A stretch of 64,000 bases of DNA, taken from Candidatus Saccharimonadales bacterium (GTDB taxonomy: Bacteria > Patescibacteriota > Saccharimonadia > Saccharimonadales > EFPC-124). The position numbers and the translations under genes are program-made. The stretch spans positions 704-64,703 of the forward strand of contig DASTDY010000058.1 in NCBI GenBank assembly GCA_035710125.1, read 5' to 3'. The notes under the pieces were generated by a model. The model was not told the DNA's origin, searched no databases, and was given only the letters and a program-made list of their open reading frames with translations. Below, in pieces: positions 2,387 through 62,556 of the stretch; the stretch's first letter is position 1, and each line of letters starts with the position of its first letter.

Positions 2387-3445
2387 ATGAAAGCGATGCC
2401 ACAAAAAACAAAAGTTTCAGCCAAAAACCATCCAACAAAAAAACGGCAACATTTGCGACCGCTCCATATGATGCGGCTTTATGGTTTCGGCGCGCTTATG
2501 GCCAGCCTAATAGCGATCCATTTTATTGCAGCTCTGCAAGCAAATGCCGTCCGCCCAACTCAGCCCCAGAGCGAGGTACTTGCCTATGCTACCTCTATAA
2601 ATGTGGATGATTTACTCGCCGCAACTAACCAATCCCGCGCGAGCAACGGGCTCGCGGCACTTACGCTGAACGCCAAACTGAATAGCGGCGCACAGGCAAA
2701 AGCAAACGACATGATTGCCAAAAATTACTGGAGCCACAACAGCCCAGATGGCACGCAACCTTGGGCATTTTTTGTGGGTGCAGGCTATAACTATGTGCGG
2801 GCAGGCGAAAACCTGGCCTACGGATTCGACACGAGTAGCGGCGTACAGACAGGCTGGATGAACAGCGCTGGCCACCGCGCGAATGTATTGGGCAATTTTG
2901 CAGACGTAGGGTTTGGCATTGCAAACGGCCCAAATTACCAAGGCGGACCGAATACCGTGGTTGTTGCGTTTTACGCAACAGCACAGACAACGCCCGCTCC
3001 TGCCCCTGCCGTGGCGCCTGCCGCCCCAGCGCAGGCACCACCAGCGCCAAAACCCGCGGTTGTGCCACAACCACCAGCTGCGCCACCCGCCCCCGCCCCA
3101 ACACCGCCCGCACCTGAACCAGTAAAACCCGAAGTCCCGCAAGAACAGCCTCTAAACAGCAACCAAAACGAGTCCCAGTCACAACCAAAAGAACCGCCGC
3201 AAGATCCCAAACAGGTCACTACACTCGAGACGGTCTTAAACGGCCAAACTTCATGGCCAACATTCGCCAGCCTAGGGGCGGTTGGCATAACATCTGTAGG
3301 GATCGCTGGAACACACCTGCAACTTATTCGGCGCGGCTGGCGGCAAAGCAGGCATTACATTCTATTGCACCCAGCATTAGACACAGCAGTGCTCGCGGCG
3401 ATTACTGCGGCAATCCTTACCTCTGCGTCTGGTTTTATAAAATAA
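2387..3445 (+). CDS. secreted CAP/SCP (PR-1-like, YkwD-type) domain protein with Pro/Ala-rich linker and C-terminal membrane segments
   Basis: N-terminal TM/signal (LYGFGALMASLIAIHFIAAL). CAP core NYWSHNSPDG...GENLAYGF...GWMNSAGHRANVL. PAPAPAVAPAAPAQAPPAP linker, then hydrophobic C-terminus. Start at MKAMPQK (2387). Confidence 0.7.
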   Translation: MKAMPQKTKVSAKNHPTKKRQHLRPLHMMRLYGFGALMASLIAIHFIAALQANAVRPTQPQSEVLAYATSINVDDLLAATNQSRASNGLAALTLNAKLNSGAQAKANDMIAKNYWSHNSPDGTQPWAFFVGAGYNYVRAGENLAYGFDTSSGVQTGWMNSAGHRANVLGNFADVGFGIANGPNYQGGPNTVVVAFYATAQTTPAPAPAVAPAAPAQAPPAPKPAVVPQPPAAPPAPAPTPPAPEPVKPEVPQEQPLNSNQNESQSQPKEPPQDPKQVTTLETVLNGQTSWPTFASLGAVGITSVGIAGTHLQLIRRGWRQSRHYILLHPALDTAVLAAITAAILTSASGFIK

Positions 3446-7803: not shown

Positions 7804-9081
7804 CTATAAGGCCTTACCAATAGGGTCTTGAGGTGTCGTAGGTGGCACGTTTGGCGTACCTTTGGGTGTGTGTTTATGCTTGCGCCACCAGTAATAAAAA
7901 CCGCCGCTGGCTAAGCCCAACAACGCTAAACCACCGATCACCCCTACATACCATGGCGTGTCCGAACGTGTAGTTGACGTAGTTGGATTCTGGGGCGCCT
8001 CTGCTGTGGCAGCCACAGTAAAGGCAAGTACATTCTTTCGCTCCGAAGTCTTATTTGTAGCCGGATCAGTGATTTCGGCCTCGACATGGTGGTCGCCCGC
8101 AGGCAAATCTTTTACCTCGTATGACCAGTTCCCGTCTTTATCTGCGGTAACTTCGGCTGTTTTGGGCTCTGAAAATATATATAATTTTACTATCCCATTT
8201 GGCACCGTCTTACCACTTAGCAACAAAGGTTTATTGGCCGGCACGGTTATTGGTTTTTGGGCGTCAACTGTTTCACCAGAAACAGTAACAGCCGCCAGGG
8301 TAGGTTCCGTCGGATTGGCAGCCTGAGGCGTCTGCGCTGGTGAAGTAGTCGTTGGGGTGCCCGTGGTGGTACGAGGCGTTGTTGTAGTGGCGGTTGGAGC
8401 TGGGCTCGCAACCGTTTTTTTATCGAAGCGGGCAACCGCTGTCTCTGAGGCATTAACGCCGTTCACCGTGCCACTACATGTTGCAGAAGTGTTTAGTGCA
8501 TCCGCTCCCTTGCCGACTAAGTCGCATATTGTCCCGCTTGTTTCCCATCCTACAAATACAGAGTCTGCGGCTGGGGCGGCAGTGAATGTGTATCCTTGGC
8601 TTCTTCCCAGGCTGTGCGAACAGTCACCCCCACAACTAACGCCTGTACCTGTAACCGTACCCGACCCAGAACCGCTTTTGGTTATATTTGTGGCTATTGT
8701 GCCGTATAACCACGTAGCCATAAGGTAATTTCCGCTCGGCCTATATCCTATATTGTAGCTACAAGTAGTGCCGGAGTAGCTTGCAGCTGCCGACTCATTA
8801 CACGCCTGACCGCTGTTAGAACTCCAACTCACAAACTGTTTGGCCGGATCTGTGGTTGTAGCAGTAAGGGTAATAGTGCTGCCATCCGGAAAATTCTCTT
8901 GGCAGTCACTACCACAGTTAATCCCTGCGGGGCTGCTCGTTACAACGCCGCCCGCAGAGCCCGTTAGCGTAAATGTATACGTAGGCCCAGCCTGCGCAGT
9001 GTGCAGGCTAAGAAAAACGCTTAAGAGCCCTGCTATCAATACCAGGCAACTAACACCCCCGACAAAATGATGACTACCCAT
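7804..9081 (-). CDS. cell-surface protein: signal peptide, InlB-B-repeat-like Cys-containing domains, Thr/Pro linker, Ig-like domain, C-terminal TM anchor
   Basis: Signal LVLIAGLLSVFLSLHTAQA. Repeats GGVVTSSPAGINCGSDCQENFPDGSTITLTA...FVSWS and GTVTGTGVSCGGDCSHSL...FVGWE. Linker PTATTTTPRTTTGTPTTTSPAQTP. Ig-like TADKDGNWSYEVKDLPAGDHHVEAEITD. TM WYVGVIGGLALLGLASGGFYYWW followed by RKHKH. Confidence 0.7.
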   Translation of the reverse strand: MGSHHFVGGVSCLVLIAGLLSVFLSLHTAQAGPTYTFTLTGSAGGVVTSSPAGINCGSDCQENFPDGSTITLTATTTDPAKQFVSWSSNSGQACNESAAASYSGTTCSYNIGYRPSGNYLMATWLYGTIATNITKSGSGSGTVTGTGVSCGGDCSHSLGRSQGYTFTAAPAADSVFVGWETSGTICDLVGKGADALNTSATCSGTVNGVNASETAVARFDKKTVASPAPTATTTTPRTTTGTPTTTSPAQTPQAANPTEPTLAAVTVSGETVDAQKPITVPANKPLLLSGKTVPNGIVKLYIFSEPKTAEVTADKDGNWSYEVKDLPAGDHHVEAEITDPATNKTSERKNVLAFTVAATAEAPQNPTTSTTRSDTPWYVGVIGGLALLGLASGGFYYWWRKHKHTPKGTPNVPPTTPQDPIGKAL

Positions 9082-9226
9082 ATATCCCCTTATGCTTTTA
9101 ACTTAAGGTATCATAACCTGCCTCAACCGAGAAGACTCACTGCTGTTCTTACAATTTCTAAATTCGACACAGGCATATGCCCAAGAGGTTACCTGGCTGT
9201 TAAGCCACCTATTGCACCTACCTAGC

Positions 9227-9421
9227 CTAAACAGGGACACCCCATCCCGTAAAAGTTGTTTCGGCAGTTACTGGTGTGAGCACTTCAAAATATACAGTCG
9301 CAACCTGAGCATCGGGCGTGAGGTTAGCGGCGACTTCCACGTAGGTAGTGGCATTCTGCACAGATGCCGTGGTTGTATCGAGCACCTCTACATACGTTGT
9401 TGCGCTGCGCGAGTCAGCCAT
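9227..9421 (-). CDS. 64-aa repeat protein, last gene of the tail-fibre-like module
   Basis: Its ATG overlaps the upstream stop (TAATG at 9419-9423). Contains three copies of a heptad-like unit: ATTYVEV, ATTYVEV, ATVYFEV. Confidence 0.45.
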   Translation of the reverse strand: MADSRSATTYVEVLDTTTASVQNATTYVEVAANLTPDAQVATVYFEVLTPVTAETTFTGWGVPV

Positions 9422-10425
9422 TAGGCAACCTCCATGCCCGCTTCCATGCCATTTACTACAGTGTCTGTCCAAGCAGTTGAAGTGTTCGGATTAGTATCGT
9501 AGACATCGCTGTAGGGCACATACGAGGTACCTAGCGCACGAGTCGTCCCATAATAAAGCGTACTATTTATGAGCAACGCTGATTTGGCATTGCCGGTGCT
9601 GGCATCGCTTTTTGCCCCAATAAAATTATTCTGCACACCAAATATTTGCGTAACAGAAGGTAAGTCGGCGAGCACGTAGGTATCACGCTGGCCAACGGTC
9701 GGCGACCCAACATAGTCGGTAGTCGAGAACGGTTTTTCATCAACTAGCTGGAAGTTATCCACCTGGTTACCATCAGACCCCGTGAGTTGTGAATAGGTAC
9801 CGTTATTACTAGGCGAAAGGGCATGGATCCTGATATCCCCTAAGAACGTAGTATTGGAACTACCAGTGGAGTTAAGCACATACACGTCGTCAAAGCGCGC
9901 CGAAGAACCACTCGTTGACGTAATAAGTGCCACTTGATCAATGTTAGTACTTGTACCACCGTTTTTGGTATCGCCAGTAAAATCAATTTCGTTTGTCGTA
10001 GCACCATTTAGACGTACTTTTACAGTACCGCCCGAGTCCGCAACGGTTGCTTGCACTTCAAGATAATTCCATGTTAAAGGAGGAATGATTGTGGTTCCCC
10101 TAGCTAAGCTCGTACCAGCACCCGCCAACCCTCTGCGCGCATCAATGACACCCCCAGCGGTGCGCATAATACTAAGATGGGTCGTTGTCCCTGCATCGCC
10201 ACGAAAAGCAACACCACATTCACCTGCGGAAGAATAAAATGCAACACCTATTGTCACCTGCGCCGAGGGAGTTATTGAACGTGCCGCCGCGTCAGAAGTA
10301 CCTACCACGGCCACCATACCAGTCCCAAAACGAGTGGTCGACGAAGAGACAGAGGTAAAGCTACCAGGGATCCACTTTGTTGCTATGTCGCCGGCATCAA
10401 AACTATCCAAAAATAATAATGCCAT
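9421..10425 (-). CDS. tail-fibre-associated jelly-roll-like protein, paralogue B (function unknown)
   Basis: 334 aa. Starts directly after the stop of paralogue A. Shares MALLF[LM]D.FDAGD, QATVADSGGT.KVRLNGA.TNEIDFTGDTKNGGTST and TGSDGNQVDN.QLVDE blocks with 10426-11427. Confidence 0.6.
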   Translation of the reverse strand: MALLFLDSFDAGDIATKWIPGSFTSVSSSTTRFGTGMVAVVGTSDAAARSITPSAQVTIGVAFYSSAGECGVAFRGDAGTTTHLSIMRTAGGVIDARRGLAGAGTSLARGTTIIPPLTWNYLEVQATVADSGGTVKVRLNGATTNEIDFTGDTKNGGTSTNIDQVALITSTSGSSARFDDVYVLNSTGSSNTTFLGDIRIHALSPSNNGTYSQLTGSDGNQVDNFQLVDEKPFSTTDYVGSPTVGQRDTYVLADLPSVTQIFGVQNNFIGAKSDASTGNAKSALLINSTLYYGTTRALGTSYVPYSDVYDTNPNTSTAWTDTVVNGMEAGMEVA

Positions 10426-11427
10426 CTACACTACCTCCATTCCACCCTCAAGATTACTTATTTCAGACGACGTCCAGGGGAGTGATGTCACCGGACTGTT
10501 TTCATACATATCAGAATAGGTCTGCGCACTTGTCCCTAGAGACACTGGGGCACCGTAATACACAGATCCATTTGAACGTAGTGCAAATTTTATTGCCCTG
10601 GTCCCCGCTGTATTTTTTAAACTCATCACATTGCTCTGGATACCAAATATTTGATGGTACCCGTTTGGTAGGTTATCTAGCAAATATGTATCGCGTTGAC
10701 CAGATGTAGATGAGCCTACATAATCAGCCGTGCTATACGGTAGCTCATCGACAAGTTGATAATTGTCAACCTGATTACCGTCCGAGCCGGTGAACTGCGA
10801 GCTTGAACCATTACCATTCGGAGTTAATGTGTGAACTTGCACCGCACCTAAAAATGTAACATTATTCGTACCTATCGAATTAAGCGCATACATATTATCG
10901 ATCCGGTTGTTCGATGAGCCATTATCGATCCGAATAGCGTCTATAAGCGTACTAGTACCGCCGTTTTTAGTATCGCCAGTAAAATCAATTTCATTTGTCG
11001 ATGCGCCATTTAGGCGAACTTTTATGGTACCCCCCGAATCAGCCACAGTTGCTTGCATTTCTATGTAGTACCATGTACCCGCGCTTAACACTGTGGTGCC
11101 GGTTGCAAGTATTGTCCCACCCCTCCTAATTTCAAGGAGACCCGAAGAGTTATTGCGCATTACATTCGCATGCAATATTGTCCCGCCATCGGCCATAAAA
11201 TATACAGTTATTCTACTCGCGCTTACTACAGGCTGATAAGCCAAACCTACTGTTACCTGCGCTGATGGAGTAATTGGACGATAGATATCGGCAGAGGAGC
11301 TTAGCTCGACAGAGCGGCCCGAACCATAGGGCGTTATAGTGCTAGAGGTAACAATAGACGATGAAGCTGCACTCCACTTAACTAACACGTCCCCAGCATC
11401 GAACCCGTCCATGAATAATAACGCCAC
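10426..11427 (-). CDS. tail-fibre-associated jelly-roll-like protein, paralogue A (function unknown)
   Basis: 333 aa, separated by 1 nt from the upstream tail-fibre-like gene. Roughly half the residues are identical to paralogue B by eye. Confidence 0.6.
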   Translation of the reverse strand: MALLFMDGFDAGDVLVKWSAASSSIVTSSTITPYGSGRSVELSSSADIYRPITPSAQVTVGLAYQPVVSASRITVYFMADGGTILHANVMRNNSSGLLEIRRGGTILATGTTVLSAGTWYYIEMQATVADSGGTIKVRLNGASTNEIDFTGDTKNGGTSTLIDAIRIDNGSSNNRIDNMYALNSIGTNNVTFLGAVQVHTLTPNGNGSSSQFTGSDGNQVDNYQLVDELPYSTADYVGSSTSGQRDTYLLDNLPNGYHQIFGIQSNVMSLKNTAGTRAIKFALRSNGSVYYGAPVSLGTSAQTYSDMYENSPVTSLPWTSSEISNLEGGMEVV

Positions 11428-11428
11428 G

Positions 11429-12430
11429 TTATAGCACCTCTACTTGCACGGTAAGACTACTGCCCGCTACAGTACTTCCCGTTTGATCAATATCAACGGT
11501 TAAGTAGGAACCATCTGCCACTGTTGTTATATCCATGTTCGTTACCTTGCCCGAGGTGTTCGTAGAAGCAGCAATAGTAGGGCGGTTCGCCTGGTTAGTA
11601 AAAATTGTCGTACCATTAACGTTTACGTCTATTAAAATCGAAGCGCCAGTTGGTGCGGTACCCACACTAGCCCGTACACCCTGAATCGTCCAGGAAGAAC
11701 CCGAATCATTGTAAAGTCGGTGTGTGCCGCCCGCCGCCGACAGAGTACCTGTGTTCGAGAAAACATGCGTACGGGTAACAGTAGTACTCGGTAATTGGCC
11801 AGATGGCACTTTACCGCCCGAATCTAGCGACGCATACCCATTCGCTACCCCTTTATTGGCGGTCGCTTCTTTTGAGGCTAAATCTGAAACTAAGTTAGCA
11901 ACGGCAGACTCCGGAAACGCACCAGACGGCACAACCGGCGCTACGGTAAACGTTTTGGTGCCTCCAATGCTTTGGCTAGATGTAAGGTCGACAAAATTTT
12001 GTGTAGTAGACCCTGTACCTCCTTGGTCTACAGGCAGGGCACTTATTAGGTGTGTCGCAACAACAGTGGGCGCCGCGGCAGTTCCACCTAGGTCGTTCGT
12101 TAGTTGTACTGCACCCTTGGTACTCCCTGACGCATCGGGCGCAGTTGAAGATGTGGCCGCAATAGTAACATCCACCTTATTCCCAGGCGAATCATCTGCT
12201 GTGGTTATAGTGACATTGCTGCCTTCTATAAAATTAATGCGTTTGCGCGTGCCACTTAGAGTATCAGCTCGTGCAACCTCGATCTTTTGTACAGAAACAT
12301 CATTAGTGATAGCGCCGTTGACCGCCGAGCTTTTAAGAGCGCCATCATTTTCGTGGGATTGCGAAAGAAAGTCATTAAGCACAACACCCCAGGTATTTTC
12401 ATCGGCACCTATTGTTGGTAGTCTGCTCAT
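11429..12430 (-). CDS. phage tail-fibre / minor-tail-like protein
   Basis: Motifs LPTIGADENTWGVVLNDFL, KGAVQLTNDLGGTAAAPTV, LPVDQGGTGSTT and ANGYASLDSGGKVPSGQLP are typical of tail-fibre proteins of phages of Gram-positive/actinobacterial hosts. A 190-nt AT-rich region lies upstream. Confidence 0.7.
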   Translation of the reverse strand: MSRLPTIGADENTWGVVLNDFLSQSHENDGALKSSAVNGAITNDVSVQKIEVARADTLSGTRKRINFIEGSNVTITTADDSPGNKVDVTIAATSSTAPDASGSTKGAVQLTNDLGGTAAAPTVVATHLISALPVDQGGTGSTTQNFVDLTSSQSIGGTKTFTVAPVVPSGAFPESAVANLVSDLASKEATANKGVANGYASLDSGGKVPSGQLPSTTVTRTHVFSNTGTLSAAGGTHRLYNDSGSSWTIQGVRASVGTAPTGASILIDVNVNGTTIFTNQANRPTIAASTNTSGKVTNMDITTVADGSYLTVDIDQTGSTVAGSSLTVQVEVL

Positions 12431-56528: not shown

Positions 56529-58376
56529 ATGGTAAAGTTAATTCCACTAAAATTACAACACAAGCTCACGTCGGTGACGGGACGCTTTTTACAGATCGGA
56601 TCACAGATGTCATTAAAAAAACTAAGCACTCTTGTAGCCGCGATCGCTGCGAGCGGCCTGCTGCTACTTGGCCAGTCAGCGCCGGCTTTGGCAGCTGCTA
56701 CTTGGCCAGCGCCAGCCGCAGCAATTTCGTTTACGTTTGACGACGGCTTTGCCAGCGTATACACCCAAGCTAAACCAGCCTTAGCCAAGTATGGACTTAA
56801 TGGCACTAGTTATGTTGTAACAGATTGCGTTGGCATGACAAAAACCCCCAACACCTGTCGTGCAGACAACGACAAACCTTACATGACCTGGACGCAGATT
56901 AAGCAACTACAAGCATCAGGCTGGGAGATTGGCTCGCACAGCAAGACCCATCCATACCTTGCCAGTAGCGACGCAGATGATGGCCAACCTAATGTATTAA
57001 CTCCCGCCCAAGTAGAACAAGAGCTGTCACAAAGCAAGGCAGCGCTTGCAGCCCAAGGCATCAACGCTATGAGCTTTGCAAGCCCATATGGTGACTACAA
57101 TAACGCCACACTTGCAAAAATCGCCAAATACTACCAGACTCACCGAGGTTTTGCCGACACCAACAACAACCAATGGCCATTTAACGACTACCTGCTTAAC
57201 AACTTCCCCGTACAAGAAGGCGTGACGGTAGACCAGGTAAAAGCAAAAATCGACGATGCCATTGCTAACAAACGCTGGTTAGTACTGACATTCCATAATA
57301 TTGCTACCTCGCCAAGCACAAACCCAGACGACTACGAATACTCTACAGCCAAACTTGAACAAATCGCAGCCTACGTAAAAAGTAAGCAAAGTGCGGGCCT
57401 CATTAAAAATACATTAGTGAAGAATGGCATCGTAAAAGGCGACACAAACATGTTTGCGAACGGCGGATTTGAATCTGGCATTAGCGGCGGCTGGTCAACA
57501 GACAACACTTCCGTCTTTAAGGCCAACAACGCCGGTAACGGCAACGCTACTGGACCTAACAAATCGGTAGCCGTTACAGCCGGCCCAACAACTGCGCACC
57601 TATATTCGCCAAAAGTAACGGTAAATAGTGCGCAAAGCTACCTTATAAAGAGCTACCTGAATGTGGCCGCCATAAAATCTGGCGAAATCGGCTATTACAT
57701 AGACGAATACGACGCAAGCGGTAATTGGGTGAGCGGGCAATGGAAAAAGGCCGAGAATGCTGCCTTTGTAGAGGGCATTAACTTTAGCTACACCCCAAGT
57801 TCTACCGCAGTAAAACAAGCCCAGTTGCAAATTTACGTTACAGGCAATTCGGGCATAAAAGCGTTTATAGATGGATTCTTCATGTTTGCGCTGAACGGAG
57901 CTACGCCCACACCTGTTACACCAACTAACCTTGTTGCCAACGGCACATTCGACGCTGGTATAAGCGGCGGCTGGTCAACAAACAGCCAATCCACAATTAC
58001 TGCCGACCAAAACAATAACGGCAGCCCTGCTAATCCTGTTAACTCAGTTCGGCTTACCTCTGCCACACAAGAGCGCCATTTGTTTGGCCCAAATGTAGCG
58101 GTGAACTCCGGTAAAAGCTATACTATTGCCAGTTACCTCAGCGTAAAGGCAATCACGGCTGGAGAAATCGGCTATTACATAGACGAATACGACGCAAGCG
58201 GTAATTGGGTGAGTGGCCAATGGAAATCCGGCATCAGCACTGTAGGCGCAAAAGAGCTTAGCTTACAATACAGCCCGAGTTCTACGGCTGTCGCATATGC
58301 AAGCCTGCAAATAATTGTGCCCGCGAATGCAAGCTTGAATGCATACATTGACCACATTCGGTGGTACCAAAACTAG
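56529..58376 (+). CDS. secreted polysaccharide deacetylase (NodB domain) with two C-terminal carbohydrate-binding-like jelly-roll repeats
   Basis: NodB motifs TFDDGF and GSHSKTHP. The signal peptide MSLKKLSTLVAAIAASGLLLLGQSAPALA suggests the real start may be ATG 56607. Two 160-aa repeats (GGFESGISGGWST... / GTFDAGISGGWST...). Confidence 0.8.
   Translation: MVKLIPLKLQHKLTSVTGRFLQIGSQMSLKKLSTLVAAIAASGLLLLGQSAPALAAATWPAPAAAISFTFDDGFASVYTQAKPALAKYGLNGTSYVVTDCVGMTKTPNTCRADNDKPYMTWTQIKQLQASGWEIGSHSKTHPYLASSDADDGQPNVLTPAQVEQELSQSKAALAAQGINAMSFASPYGDYNNATLAKIAKYYQTHRGFADTNNNQWPFNDYLLNNFPVQEGVTVDQVKAKIDDAIANKRWLVLTFHNIATSPSTNPDDYEYSTAKLEQIAAYVKSKQSAGLIKNTLVKNGIVKGDTNMFANGGFESGISGGWSTDNTSVFKANNAGNGNATGPNKSVAVTAGPTTAHLYSPKVTVNSAQSYLIKSYLNVAAIKSGEIGYYIDEYDASGNWVSGQWKKAENAAFVEGINFSYTPSSTAVKQAQLQIYVTGNSGIKAFIDGFFMFALNGATPTPVTPTNLVANGTFDAGISGGWSTNSQSTITADQNNNGSPANPVNSVRLTSATQERHLFGPNVAVNSGKSYTIASYLSVKAITAGEIGYYIDEYDASGNWVSGQWKSGISTVGAKELSLQYSPSSTAVAYASLQIIVPANASLNAYIDHIRWYQN
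57684..58213 (+). repeat. 50-nt perfect direct repeat (57684-57733 and 58164-58213) inside the two diverged C-terminal domains
   Basis: gaaatcggctattacatagacgaatacgacgcaagcggtaattgggtgag occurs twice, exactly 480 nt apart. It encodes the EIGYYIDEYDASGNWVS core of the shared GEIGYYIDEYDASGNWVSGQWK block. Confidence 0.9.
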
Positions 58377-58390
58377 GACTCAGCATTCTT

Positions 58391-58425
58391 ATAAAATAGC
58401 CGGCCGAGAGTGCCGGTTATTTTAT
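58391..58425. terminator. bidirectional rho-independent terminator
   Basis: ATAAAATAgCCGG-ccgagagtg-CCGGtTATTTTAT has A/T-rich arms on both sides and sits 15 nt after the deacetylase stop. Confidence 0.6.
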
Positions 58426-58598
58426 ATTCTTGCCAGCCACAACAAAATAAGCTCAGTGACGGCGACTAACCCAAGCACAATGGCAATAATGACAAAAATA
58501 GCCAGTGTACGAATTTTTGGCTGGCTCATTTCTGCTGACGGTTGAGCCGCTTTTGGGTCAACATCTAAAAAAGTTTGTGGTTTTTGCGGATTGCCCAT
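58422..58598 (-). CDS. possible 58-aa membrane peptide
   Basis: MGNPQKPQTFLDVDPKAAQPSAEMSQPKIRTLAIFVIIAIVLGLVAVTELILLWLARI. One clear TM, no obvious SD. Below the ORF-track size cut-off. Confidence 0.3.
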   Translation of the reverse strand: MGNPQKPQTFLDVDPKAAQPSAEMSQPKIRTLAIFVIIAIVLGLVAVTELILLWLARI

Positions 58599-58638
58599 AG
58601 TGGTATTGTGTATAGGCTGAGGTTGGTTGTCAAGCGAT

Positions 58639-58776
58639 GCAGTTCCCCGGCTGTGCCCTTAGATAATGAGGGTCAAGCGTAGTGCAGCCGAGCATATGAA
58701 TCTGCCTTTTTCTTTGGCAGATTCTTTGCGCGGCGCGTAACGCACTCATTATCTAAGGGCACAGCCGGGGAACTGC
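58639..58776. repeat. 138-nt palindromic element: perfect 32-bp inverted repeat enclosing a 74-nt core with an inner 9-bp hairpin
   Basis: Left arm gcagttccccggctgtgcccttagataatgag (58639-58670) is the exact reverse complement of the right arm (58745-58776). Inner hairpin GAATCTGCC-tttttcttt-GGCAGATTC (58698-58724). The element begins 3 nt downstream of the response-regulator stop codon (58779-58781) on the minus strand. Confidence 0.85.
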
Positions 58777-58778
58777 GA

Positions 58779-59156
58779 CTACTCCAAGGATTTTATAATA
58801 TTCAAAAGATCGTCTAGCACAATCTCTGCTTTGATAACGTAGCCGTCCATATCTTTATGCACCTGCGGACTCACCTTAGAAGCGTCGCCCAAGTTGGTGA
58901 GCATAACAATCTTTGCAAGCGTACAGTTGTATTCTGGGTTGTGGCGCAGAATCTTCAACACCTCAAACCCATCTTTTTTTGGCATCATAACATCAAGAAA
59001 AATGAGGTCTGGCTTGTATTCCTTAGCAACGTCTAACGCTTGGTCTCCATCGTTTGCAATTGCAACCTCGAAACCACTTTGTGTTAAAAAAAGATGATAA
59101 ATTTCTATTAACTGAGCATTATCTTCAACGAGTAATATTTTGCGTAGTCCAGCCAT
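58779..59156 (-). CDS. single-domain (CheY-like) response regulator
   Basis: KILLVEDN...DLIFLDVMMPKKDGFEVL...K: receiver domain only, 125 aa. AGGAGG SD. Overlaps the kinase gene by 32 nt. Confidence 0.9.
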   Translation of the reverse strand: MAGLRKILLVEDNAQLIEIYHLFLTQSGFEVAIANDGDQALDVAKEYKPDLIFLDVMMPKKDGFEVLKILRHNPEYNCTLAKIVMLTNLGDASKVSPQVHKDMDGYVIKAEIVLDDLLNIIKSLE

Positions 59157-61341
59157 GTTGCCTCCTGATTGCTGTTACCTTGGATTGTGGTGCGGACGGC
59201 GTAATTGTATCTGCTTTAGGCAAGGTTATTATAAATGTAGAGCCTTTGCCTTCTTCGGAACTAAACGTAATTGTACCACCTTGCCGCTCGATTAACGATT
59301 TTGCAATGAACAACCCAAGCCCTGTACCGGTACTGCCGCTATCGAGCCCGCCGTGCACGCGGTAAAACTTAGTGAACAAGTTGGACTGCGATTGCTTGGG
59401 AATTCCCACGCCAGTATCTGTAACCTGCACACGGTAGTCTGCGCCTTGGACGCCAAGCAGCACACTCACCTTGCCACCTTCTGGCGTGTATTTTATGGCA
59501 TTCGAGATCAGGTTGTTAATAACCTCGTGCAATGCGATTCTGTCGGCAATGACAAAGCAACCCTCTGTTGCACCCTGATACACGACAGTGATTTTTTTAT
59601 CGCGGGCGCTAAATGTAGCCTCTTCGACCGCTTGCTTAACATCTGCGGCTATGTCTACATTCTCTAAATTAAAGGTGAGCGTGCCACGCTCTATGCGCGT
59701 AACATCAAGCAGGTTATTAATAAGGCCTCCCAACTCTGTAGAGCTTTTTAATGCCTGCTGCAAATATTTTGACGTATCATCGCTTGCAACGCCTTGGCCG
59801 CCTTTAAAAGTAATCAGTTCTAGATATCCGCGGATTGCGGCAAGCGGCGTGCGTAATTCGTGCGCAGCCATAGACACAAAGTCGACTTTCATAGCTTCTA
59901 GCTCTCGGTCTCTTGTTTCGTCATGGATTGTCACAATTGTTTGCGCGGCCTTTTGTTCTTGCTCGCCACTTACCCGTGCCACAATTAATTTAACGTAGCT
60001 GGTGGCGCCGGCAACGTTGGTAAATTCGAGATCTTCGTAGACCGCAGAATTTGCGGGCGCGTAGTCAGCGGTGAATGGCTGCCCTTGTTGTGTCCAGGCA
60101 AAAATGTCGTTAATATTTTTGCCAACCAATTTATCGGAATCGAGCCGGGCCATTTCAGCTGCCGCCTGGTTTACCAAAACAATCATGCCCTGCTTATCGA
60201 TTGCTAAGATACCTTCTTTTGTACTGTTAAGGATAACCTCGAGGCGATTACGTTGGGATTCGATACTGGTCACAAAAGTATCCAGGCTTATGCCCATGGC
60301 GTTAATACTTTCGGCAAGCATACCGATTTCGTCGTTGCGCCGCACAAAAGTCCGGGCCAAAAAGTCGCCTCTACCGATCCGCCTGGCGATTGTAGCAATC
60401 TGCAGTATTGGTTGGGTAAAGAACCTGGTAAGGCCAAGCGCGATTAATACAATCGCGCCAGACGATGTTAATACAATAATAAAAAGTAAGTTCCGTAATT
60501 GGTCGATTTGCGCCAAGGCTTCGGAGGTGTCAATTTTAGCCGCAATCACCCAATCGGCAAAACCAATTGATTTTGCAGCTACCATAACCTGCTTGCCCCG
60601 GTAGTCGGTGAGCTCTTTATAGTCTTGCTGGCCAGCTGGGGCAAAAAGCTGTAGCGAGCTTACATTTGTTTTTTGGGGGGCGTCAGCATCAAAACGCAAA
60701 GGAAACAGGGAGACCACAGTACCATCTTGCGTTTTCTCTGCTACGACCGTTTCTCCAGTGGTGCCTAGGCCAGTATAATCTTGAAGCGCGGCTATAATGT
60801 CGTCTATTCTAAACACCACACTCACCACCCCAGATTCAGTCTTGTTTACATTAACTTTAGCGGTAATATATAGCTTGTCTATGCCGTCACGCTGGTCTTT
60901 GCGTACTCCTGTGCTAATCTCTTGGCCTGCAGCAAGGGCAAAGTCTTGGGGGTCTAGCTGAGTTCCCTCCACATCGCGATTAGTAGATACAATTATCTTA
61001 CCTTTTAGGTCGGCCAGATGGATTGTTTGGATATCTGGGGTAGCAATTTTTTTAGCCAGTAAAATGGCACTTAGCTGTTCCTTTGCCTGTTTGTTCGTAA
61101 GGTACATGCCTAGCGTACGCTGAAGGTCAAACTTGTTAGAAAGCTCAATCGCTTCTTCTTGACGTTTTTGTAGCAAGCCATTTATACGTTGTTCTTGTTT
61201 TATGGCCGTACTTACTAGCTGTTCGGCAGTCTTACGCGTTAGGCCACTACTAATGGTTATGTAGGCAATGGCGCTCACTATTAAAGTGGGCACTAGGCCA
61301 ATTAACAACATAAGAATTGTGAGTTTTATCCTTATGCTCAT
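59125..61341 (-). CDS. sensor histidine kinase (extracytoplasmic Cache-like domain, HAMP, PAS, HisKA, HATPase_c)
   Basis: Two TMs flank an approximately 260-aa periplasmic region. HAMP IGRGDFLARTFVRRNDEIGMLAESINAM. H-box SMAAHELRTPL. N/G boxes NLISNAIKYT, DTGVGI and GTGLGL. Confidence 0.9.
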   Translation of the reverse strand: MSIRIKLTILMLLIGLVPTLIVSAIAYITISSGLTRKTAEQLVSTAIKQEQRINGLLQKRQEEAIELSNKFDLQRTLGMYLTNKQAKEQLSAILLAKKIATPDIQTIHLADLKGKIIVSTNRDVEGTQLDPQDFALAAGQEISTGVRKDQRDGIDKLYITAKVNVNKTESGVVSVVFRIDDIIAALQDYTGLGTTGETVVAEKTQDGTVVSLFPLRFDADAPQKTNVSSLQLFAPAGQQDYKELTDYRGKQVMVAAKSIGFADWVIAAKIDTSEALAQIDQLRNLLFIIVLTSSGAIVLIALGLTRFFTQPILQIATIARRIGRGDFLARTFVRRNDEIGMLAESINAMGISLDTFVTSIESQRNRLEVILNSTKEGILAIDKQGMIVLVNQAAAEMARLDSDKLVGKNINDIFAWTQQGQPFTADYAPANSAVYEDLEFTNVAGATSYVKLIVARVSGEQEQKAAQTIVTIHDETRDRELEAMKVDFVSMAAHELRTPLAAIRGYLELITFKGGQGVASDDTSKYLQQALKSSTELGGLINNLLDVTRIERGTLTFNLENVDIAADVKQAVEEATFSARDKKITVVYQGATEGCFVIADRIALHEVINNLISNAIKYTPEGGKVSVLLGVQGADYRVQVTDTGVGIPKQSQSNLFTKFYRVHGGLDSGSTGTGLGLFIAKSLIERQGGTITFSSEEGKGSTFIITLPKADTITPSAPQSKVTAIRRQHGWTTQNITR

Positions 61342-61347
61342 ACCAGT

Positions 61348-62556
61348 TTACTGTGCCACCAGCTGGAAGGCACCGTCTTTAACTTCAAACAGGTCGTACC
61401 TGTAGTCTCTATTCGTAACTTCACCGTTAGAATCGAACTTTATAAGGCCAGATACTCCCTGAAAACTAATTCCTGGGATTGCTTGCTTGATTTCTTCACC
61501 TGTTGATGCACCCTGCTCGGTTGCAATCTGCAAAAGGTGGATTATGTCGTATGCCTGTGGGGCTGCATATAGCTGTTCTGACTTTTGGTACTCGTTGAGT
61601 AACGACTGCTTGAACGCCTTTGTGCCAGTTGGGAACGACGATATAATAAGGCCTTCAGCGGCAGACATTGCATTATTAATCATGGTGTTGTCGTACATAA
61701 TATCAGCCCCAAATAGTGGCACTGCAAGCCCCGCTTGGCGCGATAACTTGACTACTGCGGTTGCTGTCACTACCGAATTAGGCGCAACAAATACAGCTTG
61801 GGGTTTTGCGGCTTTAAGGTCGTTTATTTGTGCGGTAAGGTCAATAACGTCTGGCTCGGCTGATGCCGTAGCAACCACCTTGCCACCAAGCGCCTCAAAC
61901 TTCTCACGGAAAACCGTGTTCATACCGGTGCCGTACGGTTCGTTAGTGTAAAATACGCCAACGTTCCGTATGCCTCGGTCGTAAATTGACTGCGCCATAA
62001 ATGCTCCCTGAAAATTATCTGGAGGCACAACCCTAAAAAAGTAATCATTCGGAATTGTAAGCGTGGGGCTAGATGCAGACGGACTAATTAACGGCACCCG
62101 TGCATTATTTGCCGCTGGCAGCGCGGCAACAGTAGCGCTAGAGCAACCCTCGCCAATGATTGCCGCCACTTTTTGTTCGATCAGCCGCTTTACTGCTTCG
62201 GCTGCCGATTTTGGATCGCACTTGGAATCTTCTTGGATAATCTCTATGTTGTCGGCGCTGAGTTGTTTTTTGGCGAGCTGCACGCCTTTCATGGCTCCGT
62301 AGCCCATGCTGCTTGAGCCGCCGCTAAATGCCATCATAACCCCAACTTTTATACGAGGTTTTTCAGGTGACCTCGTACTCTGGTAATACATAAATACGCC
62401 ATAGGCGCATACGGCAAGCAACAAAAGCGCAAGTACTGTATTTACAATAAAAATTCGGCTTAGGCCTTTTTTGGGGGGCTGAGGTATGGGCGTTTGGTTG
62501 TCTAGTTCTGGAAACTCAGATAATCGAGCGCTACCGCCTTGTACTTTTAAATCCAT
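61348..62556 (-). CDS. membrane-anchored type-1 periplasmic binding protein (LivJ/Leu-Ile-Val-binding-like)
   Basis: N-terminal TM, then IKVGVMMAFSGGSSSMGYGAMKGVQLA...AAIIGEGCSSATVA. No ABC permease or ATPase nearby. 6 nt upstream of the kinase gene. Confidence 0.75.
   Translation of the reverse strand: MDLKVQGGSARLSEFPELDNQTPIPQPPKKGLSRIFIVNTVLALLLLAVCAYGVFMYYQSTRSPEKPRIKVGVMMAFSGGSSSMGYGAMKGVQLAKKQLSADNIEIIQEDSKCDPKSAAEAVKRLIEQKVAAIIGEGCSSATVAALPAANNARVPLISPSASSPTLTIPNDYFFRVVPPDNFQGAFMAQSIYDRGIRNVGVFYTNEPYGTGMNTVFREKFEALGGKVVATASAEPDVIDLTAQINDLKAAKPQAVFVAPNSVVTATAVVKLSRQAGLAVPLFGADIMYDNTMINNAMSAAEGLIISSFPTGTKAFKQSLLNEYQKSEQLYAAPQAYDIIHLLQIATEQGASTGEEIKQAIPGISFQGVSGLIKFDSNGEVTNRDYRYDLFEVKDGAFQLVAQ

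Follow-up and report, generated by a model that had tools for sequence, protein, structure and literature searches.

Template switching in quasi-palindromes has been shown experimentally in E. coli (PMC7202029), and it has been proposed both as the reason why perfect inverted repeats are conserved in Proteobacteria (PMC5941160) and as a process that creates and maintains RNA hairpins (PMC8794818). In a single event, a template switch can fix substitutions, transversion pairs and indels (PMC7202029, PMC5941160, PMC8794818). Here we analyse a 138-nt palindromic element (58639..58776, minus strand) in a 64,000-nt stretch of contig DASTDY010000058.1 from a Candidatus Saccharimonadales bacterium (assembly GCA_035710125.1); this whole stretch is called the window. 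The element lies inside the transcription unit of a two-component operon, between the stop codon of the response regulator gene and the promoter-like site of a 58-aa membrane-peptide gene. We regard it, with about as much confidence as doubt, as an old lineage-specific palindromic insertion between that stop codon and the promoter of the peptide gene, whose arms have been kept complementary chiefly by copying; in origin it may be a dead transposable element of the miniature inverted-repeat kind (MITE).

In operon sense, the 5' arm (58745..58776, the right arm on the plus strand) and the 3' arm (58639..58670, the left arm on the plus strand) enclose a core of 74 nt (58671..58744), all three being assigned to the minus strand. 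The two 32-nt arms are complementary at 32/32 positions (100%; GCAGTTCCCCGGCTGTGCCCTTAGATAATGAG at 58639-58670 against 58745-58776), and all 32 pairs are Watson-Crick, with zero G.U. The core holds an inner perfect hairpin (58698..58724, strand unassigned) with a 9-bp stem, GAATCTGCC (58698-58706) and GGCAGATTC (58716-58724), and 9 nt in the loop. Since the central part of the core is palindromic too, though in degenerate form (13 matches across the 20-nt left segment, p ~0.05), the whole 138 nt would form one hairpin of three tiers, namely the outer perfect 32-bp stem, a decayed middle stem and the inner perfect 9-bp stem. As RNA, the operon strand of the element has a predicted fold of -101.4 kcal/mol (z = -14.7), and its complement one of -100.5 kcal/mol (z = -12.5). 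Downstream of the inner hairpin stand TTTG on the plus strand and ATATGC on the minus strand, leaving no usable T-tract either way. The arms are not copies of the adjoining flank sequence, and the GC content of the element is 54%, compared with 49% for the window.

The element is the longest inverted repeat of the window, the sole one with arms longer than 22 nt and the sole perfect long one. A search of the window with the arm as query, allowing up to 3 mismatches, returned both arms as the only matches (0 expected from 100 shuffles), well outside what chance would give. An earlier reading of the stretch made without database searches, here called the sequence-only reading, had described the 32-bp perfect inverted repeat, the 74-nt core and the inner hairpin, all of which were recovered, and had noticed no second copy in the window, in agreement with the arm search. 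It had also placed the start of the element 3 nt downstream of the regulator stop codon, which is roughly right: two bases intervene, and the first base of the element is the third after the stop.

Two further observations concern the sequence of the element and its edge. The 3' arm lies between two direct copies of the 8-nt word CGCTTGAC (operon sense), the outer one at 58629-58636 (minus strand) and the inner one at 58672-58679; the similarity reaches CTGCA(C)T(A)CGCTTGAC (p ~0.0125 by shuffling), and CGCTTGAC includes a -35-like TTGAC. This repeat may be a template-switch footprint with a duplicated return point, or else chance. There is also a single internal open reading frame (ORF) of 39 codons, MSALRAAQRICQRKRQIHMLGCTTLDPHYLRAQPGNCIA (58630-58749, minus strand), that lies wholly within the element plus 9 nt of flank. 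Its 39/40-aa product was missing from a collection of 15 billion proteins and had zero words in common with 5.8 billion predicted proteins, and the frame is probably spurious.

The same site was compared in related genomes. Relatives were traced to their contigs through homologues of the operon's histidine kinase (65-71% identity), the analysis covered 37 loci with a homologous regulator, and close lineages were taken from 90%-identity protein clusters of the kinase, the regulator and the small ORF: L089 (Logan SRR7186533) and L090/L091 (ENA ERZ27339557, ERZ27339645). The window, L089 and L090/L091 are about equally distant from one another, with flanks of 89-91% nucleotide identity, while identity to the more distant L085 is ~68%.

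The more distant relatives have no element at this site. In L002/L003, L004 and L088 a homologue of the small ORF (60-62 aa) follows soon after the regulator stop, across a gap of 9-11 nt in L002-L004, where it is Shine-Dalgarno-like, and of 8 nt in L088. In L085, the closest of the relatives with ~70% kinase identity, a 47-nt spacer reads TAA-GCATAC-ATTGCTTGACAACC... and then TTGACA-17-GAAAAT-7-ATG (3378-3405); the window reads TAG-TC-(138 nt)-ATCGCTTGACAACC..., and homology to L085 picks up exactly where the inverted repeat ends. The promoter-like site is therefore older than the insertion, and L085 has retained it though the remaining spacer has diverged.

The close lineages carry nested forms of the element at the same site. 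After the TAG, L089 reads CAA-CAGTGTCCACGGCTGCG-CA-CTCATTATCTGAGG-T-CGTAGCCGTGGACACTG-CA-ATCGCTTGACAACC, a 52-nt hairpin with the loop CTCATTATCTGAGG and a 17-pair stem in which one pair is G.U (fold -42.7 kcal/mol, z = -6.8). Homology links its 5' arm to 58757-58776, the outer 20 nt of the window 5' arm, and its loop and 3' arm together to the full window 3' arm (58639-58670). Missing from L089 are 86 nt (58671..58756, minus strand), namely the whole core and the 12 nt of the 5' arm that adjoin it, with CC microhomology at the breakpoints. L090/L091 read TAG-TA-GCAGTGTCCACGCTGTG-G-TCGCTTGAC; they keep a 17-nt remnant of the 5' arm, with homology to the same outer 20 nt, and no 3' arm, and this remnant has no significant fold (z = -0.3). 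The core (58671-58744) is absent from L089 and from L090/L091.

One CC-microhomology deletion yields the L089 form from the window form, and for this reason the full form is taken as ancestral-like, the L089 and L090/L091 forms being read as its deletion derivatives. The reverse course, in which the L089 form is the ancestor and 86 nt were inserted later, was rejected, because the insert would have needed at its start a perfect 12-nt complement of the adjacent loop. Long palindromes are known to be unstable. Taken together, the alignments show an insertion event that postdates the split from the ~70%-kinase relatives and predates the split of the three lineages with ~90% DNA identity. The element is thus, as judged from these alignments, an old, shared and deletion-eroded insertion and not a fresh transposition.

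The arms should have diverged over this time. Between the window and L089 the divergence at four-fold sites is 0.255, or 0.31 after Jukes-Cantor correction, which corresponds to ~10 substitutions expected in the 64 arm bases in the window lineage alone; the arms are nonetheless paired at 32/32 positions. Assuming that the element is older than the split, the probability of zero arm substitutions is ~5e-5 (Poisson estimate). The sequence of the arms has in fact changed, the 5' arm differing from that of L089 at 5/20 positions, about the neutral rate. Three of the differences from L089 within the outer 20 pairs recur in mirror image on the two arms: an indel of a G-C pair, present in L089 and missing in the window, a C-G to A-T change and a T-A to C-G change. 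One additional difference is a G-C pair against G.T, and the unpaired positions of L089 are confined to the outermost pair and to those beside its new loop. With the L090 remnant as reference, two of the mirrored changes can be assigned to the window lineage, where each is fully compensated, and one can be assigned to L089.

This pattern could have arisen as follows. The palindrome would have been inserted into the short spacer between the regulator stop and the peptide promoter, and hairpin-prone deletions would then have taken 86 nt from the L089 copy and left L090/L091 with no more than 17 nt, the window form staying full length. The arms would drift approximately neutrally and yet stay paired, a change in one arm being copied into the other by template switching during replication within the hairpin (quasi-palindrome correction), where one event could perfect a long tract; selection for the hairpin may add to copying. 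Assessed as a quasi-palindrome maintained by template switching, the element displays three mirrored changes, including a base-pair indel, and arms complementary at 32/32 positions, across three lineages. The perfect outer tier adjoins the decayed middle tier, which we also count towards copying. Hairpin selection usually proceeds via G.U intermediates and tolerates wobbles and bulges. Copying is favoured over selection on the RNA because of the transversion pair, the paired indel and the zero G.U among 32 pairs (PMC8794818, PMC5941160, PMC7202029), and we infer from the arm comparisons that template switching during replication would be the best-supported mechanism for the arm complementarity.

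Several points weigh against this explanation. The 1-nt gap in the 5' arm was placed by hand (15/20 matches, compared with 8/20 ungapped), and MAFFT put a 1-nt gap in the 3' arm alone. The covariation comes from three lineages and a handful of sites, and hairpin selection predicts the identical pattern to independent re-copying in each lineage. As to the origin of the 138 nt, no homologue of the core was found anywhere searched, and there is no source nearby. Exact-word scans miss diverged relatives, the arms being ~25% divergent between close lineages, and a small repeat family in the home genome beyond the source contig is possible. Finally, no RNase III gene was seen among the 56 window ORFs scanned.

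The alternative that survives best is a selected RNA (or DNA) hairpin, in which the insertion was domesticated at the 3' end of the operon mRNA and natural selection keeps the arms paired; it would serve to stabilise the mRNA, be processed by RNase III, or act as an unconventional terminator that insulates the promoter of the small ORF. We consider this unlikely, while giving it real weight. The mirrored changes that preserve pairing across ~0.31 neutral divergence are as expected from such selection, and the lone wobble in L089 is a G.U on the operon strand, where the other strand would have C.A. The position between the stop codon and the next -35 hexamer would suit a terminator or insulator, and two other Saccharimonadales lineages, L013 and L031, bear unrelated long perfect inverted repeats close downstream of the homologous regulator. 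The Correia elements of Neisseria provide a precedent, RNase III acting there on co-transcribed inverted repeats (PMC2649163, PMC10969869). Against selection, L090/L091 no longer have the hairpin and L089 has a truncated one, with the flanking genes intact in each case, and most relatives never had it, which indicates that it is dispensable. Moreover, a stem of 32/32 Watson-Crick pairs, a paired indel and a transversion pair are atypical for selection acting on independent mutations, the RNA fold energies are equal on both strands, and the element has neither a U-tract nor an Rfam match (none in Rfam 15 overlapping 58639-58776 at an E-value of 10 or below). The sequence-only reading had offered a structured small RNA or 3'-UTR stabiliser as one alternative; the mirrored changes lend it indirect support, but the types of change fit copying at the DNA level at least equally well.

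Whatever keeps the arms paired, an RNA read through from the operon would form a hairpin of approximately -100 kcal/mol, its 32-bp duplex starting 2 nt past the regulator stop. Such a hairpin would serve as a barrier to 3'-end exonucleases and/or as a substrate of RNase III, and would separate the operon mRNA from an independently promoted, leaderless-type peptide transcript. By this analysis, either role would be more likely than that of a canonical terminator, since what follows the stem, AUCGCUUGAC in operon sense and GACUACUCC on the complementary strand, is in neither case a U-tract. The only terminator-like sites in the scan are at 58400-58418 (one per strand) and 58319-58334. The remark in the sequence-only reading that the stem is far longer than an intrinsic terminator needs is accurate as to length, the stem being several times that needed; what also sets it apart is the missing T-run, which the real terminators nearby possess.

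A MITE that is still mobile or recently inserted, moved in trans by a transposase encoded elsewhere and with perfect arms as a sign of youth, is quite unlikely. In form the element does resemble one: it has perfect 32-bp terminal inverted repeats, it is 138 bp long (<500 bp), non-coding and intergenic with no transposase gene inside, it has a stable predicted fold, and its size and inverted-repeat range match the published description of prokaryotic MITEs (PMC10969869). It is also missing at the matching site of the more distant relatives. However, the partly deleted homologues occupy the identical site across ~0.31 divergence; the insertion is therefore old, and youth cannot explain the perfect arms. 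The arm sequence varies between lineages, whereas ends bound by a transposase should be conserved, and a GC content of 54% is not AT-rich. No transposase or recombinase domain was detected in Pfam scans of 56 window ORFs. The operon-sense flanks (...GTAGTC, element, ATCGCTTGAC...) contain no target-site duplication, the self-complementary terminal GC being the sole conceivable 2-bp duplication, although such duplications can fade in old insertions (PMC10969869). A one-step insertion of 138 nt with the repeat ends as transposon ends was also considered, and it is weakened by the nested L089 and L090 forms.

Neither the window nor 1.06 Mb of related loci contained a second copy, and blastn-short and nhmmer against all fetched loci recovered the L089 homologue alone. 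The arm 20-mer TTCCCCGGCTGTGCCCTTAG had 0 matches in GTDB species genomes and a single match in JGI metagenomes, at 9081-9100 of the TARA contig L001, with no inverted repeat around it. This match was rejected as a copy of the element and attributed to chance, as it lies inside a 327-aa ORF that appears, by reading of the sequence alone, to encode an Obg-like GTPase. An arm 18-mer had 0 matches in viral contigs, and blastn of the region found nothing in plasmids or phages. The 56 window ORFs scanned gave no transposase of a partner insertion sequence, and there is no sign of repeated movement: presence and absence relative to the outgroups amount to one ancient insertion.

With regard to the MITE suggested by the sequence-only reading, the MITE-like architecture and a lineage-specific insertion hold, and recency or activity does not. 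Flank inspection confirmed its observation that a target-site duplication is lacking. It had proposed searching related genomes with the arms for copy number and insertion polymorphism, which gave no further copies and an insertion absent in the ~70% relatives and nested in the close lineages. Its argument that a MITE is unlikely if the element is single-copy and at the same position in all relatives applies in part, given that the element is single-copy in everything searched and at the same site in the three close lineages. An ancient MITE origin is possible; an active or recent MITE is unlikely.

A bolder version of the selected hairpin is a domesticated insulator, a structure that would act by termination without a U-tract or through RNase III and uncouple the leaderless peptide gene from the two-component operon, at a spot that recruited unrelated palindromes independently in at least three lineages (window, L013, L031). 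We find this very doubtful. If true, it would point to a recurrent, selected way of making operon boundaries in the reduced genomes of Saccharimonadales.

The palindromes in the other two lineages can be described as follows. In L013 (8526-8622), a Saccharimonadales metagenome-assembled genome with 53% kinase identity, an element of 97 nt begins 29 nt past the orthologous regulator stop; its 26-bp arms are perfect, its core measures 45 nt, and it has no significant similarity to the window element. In L031 (7946-8401), a composite imperfect palindrome of ~450 nt with arms ~80% complementary lies downstream of the regulator gene in a related two-component system, and nested in it is a perfect 22-bp inverted repeat (7989-8010 / 8083-8104). 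The window, L013 and L031 elements have no significant mutual similarity, and Rfam returned nothing at gathering score for L013 and L031. Perfect inverted repeats of 18 bp or more with long spacers (45-172 nt) number five in ~1.05 Mb, and four of these lie just downstream of this regulator family. Within 350 nt downstream of the regulator, a long inverted repeat occurs in 3/37 homologous-regulator loci (window, L013 and L031), and the idea of a conserved operon feature was rejected on that count. In L086 (5834-5870) there is no small ORF, and a canonical terminator comes straight after the regulator, reading ACAGCCGG-GAGAA-CCGGCTGT and then a T-run. The 8-mer ACAGCCGG/CCGGCTGT is common to the window arms, in swapped order, and to the L086 terminator stem; this was judged chance or composition, as was the similarity of CAGCCGGG in the L013 arm.

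An invertible DNA switch, in which a recombinase flips the 74-bp core between the 32-bp repeats and so alters expression of the peptide gene, is extremely improbable. The inverted repeats do border a short segment just upstream of the gene's promoter, and flipping would turn the inner hairpin and its TTTG into a weak terminator-like motif of the operon strand. However, no recombinase domain was found in the 56 scanned window ORFs, the scan for promoter-like and terminator-like sites was negative for both strands of the core, the arms are not conserved in sequence, and L089 keeps the inner part of the 3' arm in the orientation seen in the window. A segment of 74 bp is also shorter than those of characterised invertons. 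The suggestion of a recombination site in the sequence-only reading is unsupported on these same grounds: no recombinase was seen among the window ORFs scanned, the core carries neither promoter nor terminator cargo, and the window and L089 agree in orientation. A retron or an integron attC site also seems unlikely: the arms are perfect and appear to lack the R'/R'' motifs, and neither a reverse transcriptase nor an integrase was seen among the scanned window ORFs. That the palindrome was made by the metagenome assembler or by chimeric reads has a next to negligible chance, for although the source is a metagenome-assembled genome, assemblies made independently from other samples (SRR7186533, ERZ27339557, ERZ27339645) have homologous arms at this site, the arms are not copied from the flanks, and the element is interior to a 67-kb contig.

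On the minus strand the genes run in the order binding protein, kinase, regulator, 2 nt, element, 40 nt, 58-aa ORF, terminator. The operon begins with a periplasmic binding protein (Peripla_BP_6; 61348..62556), followed by a HAMP-PAS histidine kinase of 738 aa (59125..61341), which was the query for relatives and is 100% identical to NCBI HET9411901.1, and ends with a single-domain response regulator of 125 aa (58779..59156), all on the minus strand. The regulator stop codon occupies 58779-58781 (minus strand), so that the 2-nt gap to the element is 58777-58778. The gene for the 58-aa single-pass membrane peptide (58422..58598, minus strand) is conserved, and the possible ORF of the sequence-only reading is thus real; it has 64% identity to its L085 counterpart and is annotated by NCBI as the hypothetical protein VFO38_03565. 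A canonical two-way intrinsic terminator with stem and T-run (58400..58418, strand unassigned) serves both the small ORF and a convergent polysaccharide deacetylase gene.

The promoter-like site TTGACA-17-CACAAT (58605..58633, minus strand) is the sole such site in the 58300-59300 scan, and its TTGACA and 17-nt spacing are kept in L085, L089 and L090. It begins 5 nt past the element and stops 6 nt short of the small ORF ATG, a leaderless-type arrangement. No Shine-Dalgarno was found ahead of the 58-aa ORF, and this, together with the conserved promoter-like site at the ATG, suggests that the ORF is probably expressed from its own leaderless-type transcript. Within the small-ORF family, the window and L085 have this leaderless-type promoter, compared with the Shine-Dalgarno-like arrangement behind the regulator in L002-L004, and two expression modes appear, from these alignments, to have been swapped within the gene family. 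The element would mark, and perhaps sharpen, the boundary of two transcription units.

The segment beyond the element is unusually close to L089 (window 58422-58638 against L089 5126-5342): the 40-nt promoter spacer is identical at 40/40 positions, and the small ORF differs at 1/27 four-fold sites and 3/58 residues, while three neighbour genes differ at 153/578 four-fold sites. This reflects either constraint at the nucleotide level or a recent recombination tract that stops at the edge of the element. Elsewhere in the window, three tandem ORFs of 333-334 aa (9421-12430, minus strand) have no Pfam match, the first two sharing 53% identity, and appear to be paralogues of an uncharacterised protein that expanded locally.

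If the copying explanation is true, the element provides a clean case from nature, in an uncultured bacterium with a reduced genome, where a long palindrome stays perfect over substantial neutral divergence, and it supports the view that template switching, besides selection, creates and preserves long hairpins. It would also advise caution, in that mirrored arm changes are not proof of a functional RNA and perfect arms are not proof of a young transposon. The element would further mark an operon boundary and a small-protein gene that is probably transcribed independently.

Compared with known systems, the element resembles a Rho-independent terminator in being a G+C-containing hairpin right after the operon's last stop and ahead of the next promoter, but it has no U-tract and a stem several-fold too long, and T-run terminators exist 200 nt away and in relatives. 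ERIC and REP sequences are likewise palindromes located behind stop codons; they are transcribed and imperfect, affect mRNA decay and show presence/absence polymorphism between relatives (PMC10969869, PMC2229807). Those are multi-copy families with a consensus, features of which none was found for the window element. REPs have in addition the dedicated RAYT transposase, and no such feature was found here. The Correia elements of Neisseria (CREE/NEMIS) are similar in their size of ~100-155 bp, their ~26-bp terminal repeats, their intergenic location and their co-transcription (PMC2649163, PMC10969869). Their duplexes can be cleaved by RNase III or alter mRNA stability, which makes them the best functional analogy for the 32-bp duplex (PMC2649163, PMC10969869). 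However, Correia elements have conserved termini, an IHF site and promoter boxes borne at their ends, whereas the window element is known from one locus, its arms are not conserved and there is no sequence similarity between the two. Correia elements also occur in many copies per genome with TA target duplications, and the window element has no duplication. Described quasi-palindromes mostly have arms of ~5-20 bp and short spacers, compared with the 32-bp arms and 74-nt spacer of the window element, which itself lies within an insertion; the proposed mechanism is drawn here from three lineages. The likeness to quasi-palindromes lies in an imperfect repeat made perfect by copying between its arms and persisting for long, in agreement with the mirrored pairs and the 32/32 arms (PMC7202029, PMC5941160, PMC8794818). 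The element therefore belongs to a known general kind, hairpin or MITE-like, with no sequence relatives beyond the close lineages, and is no new kind of system; its notable feature is that the arms remain complementary while drifting, with a stepwise decay that can be followed across three lineages.

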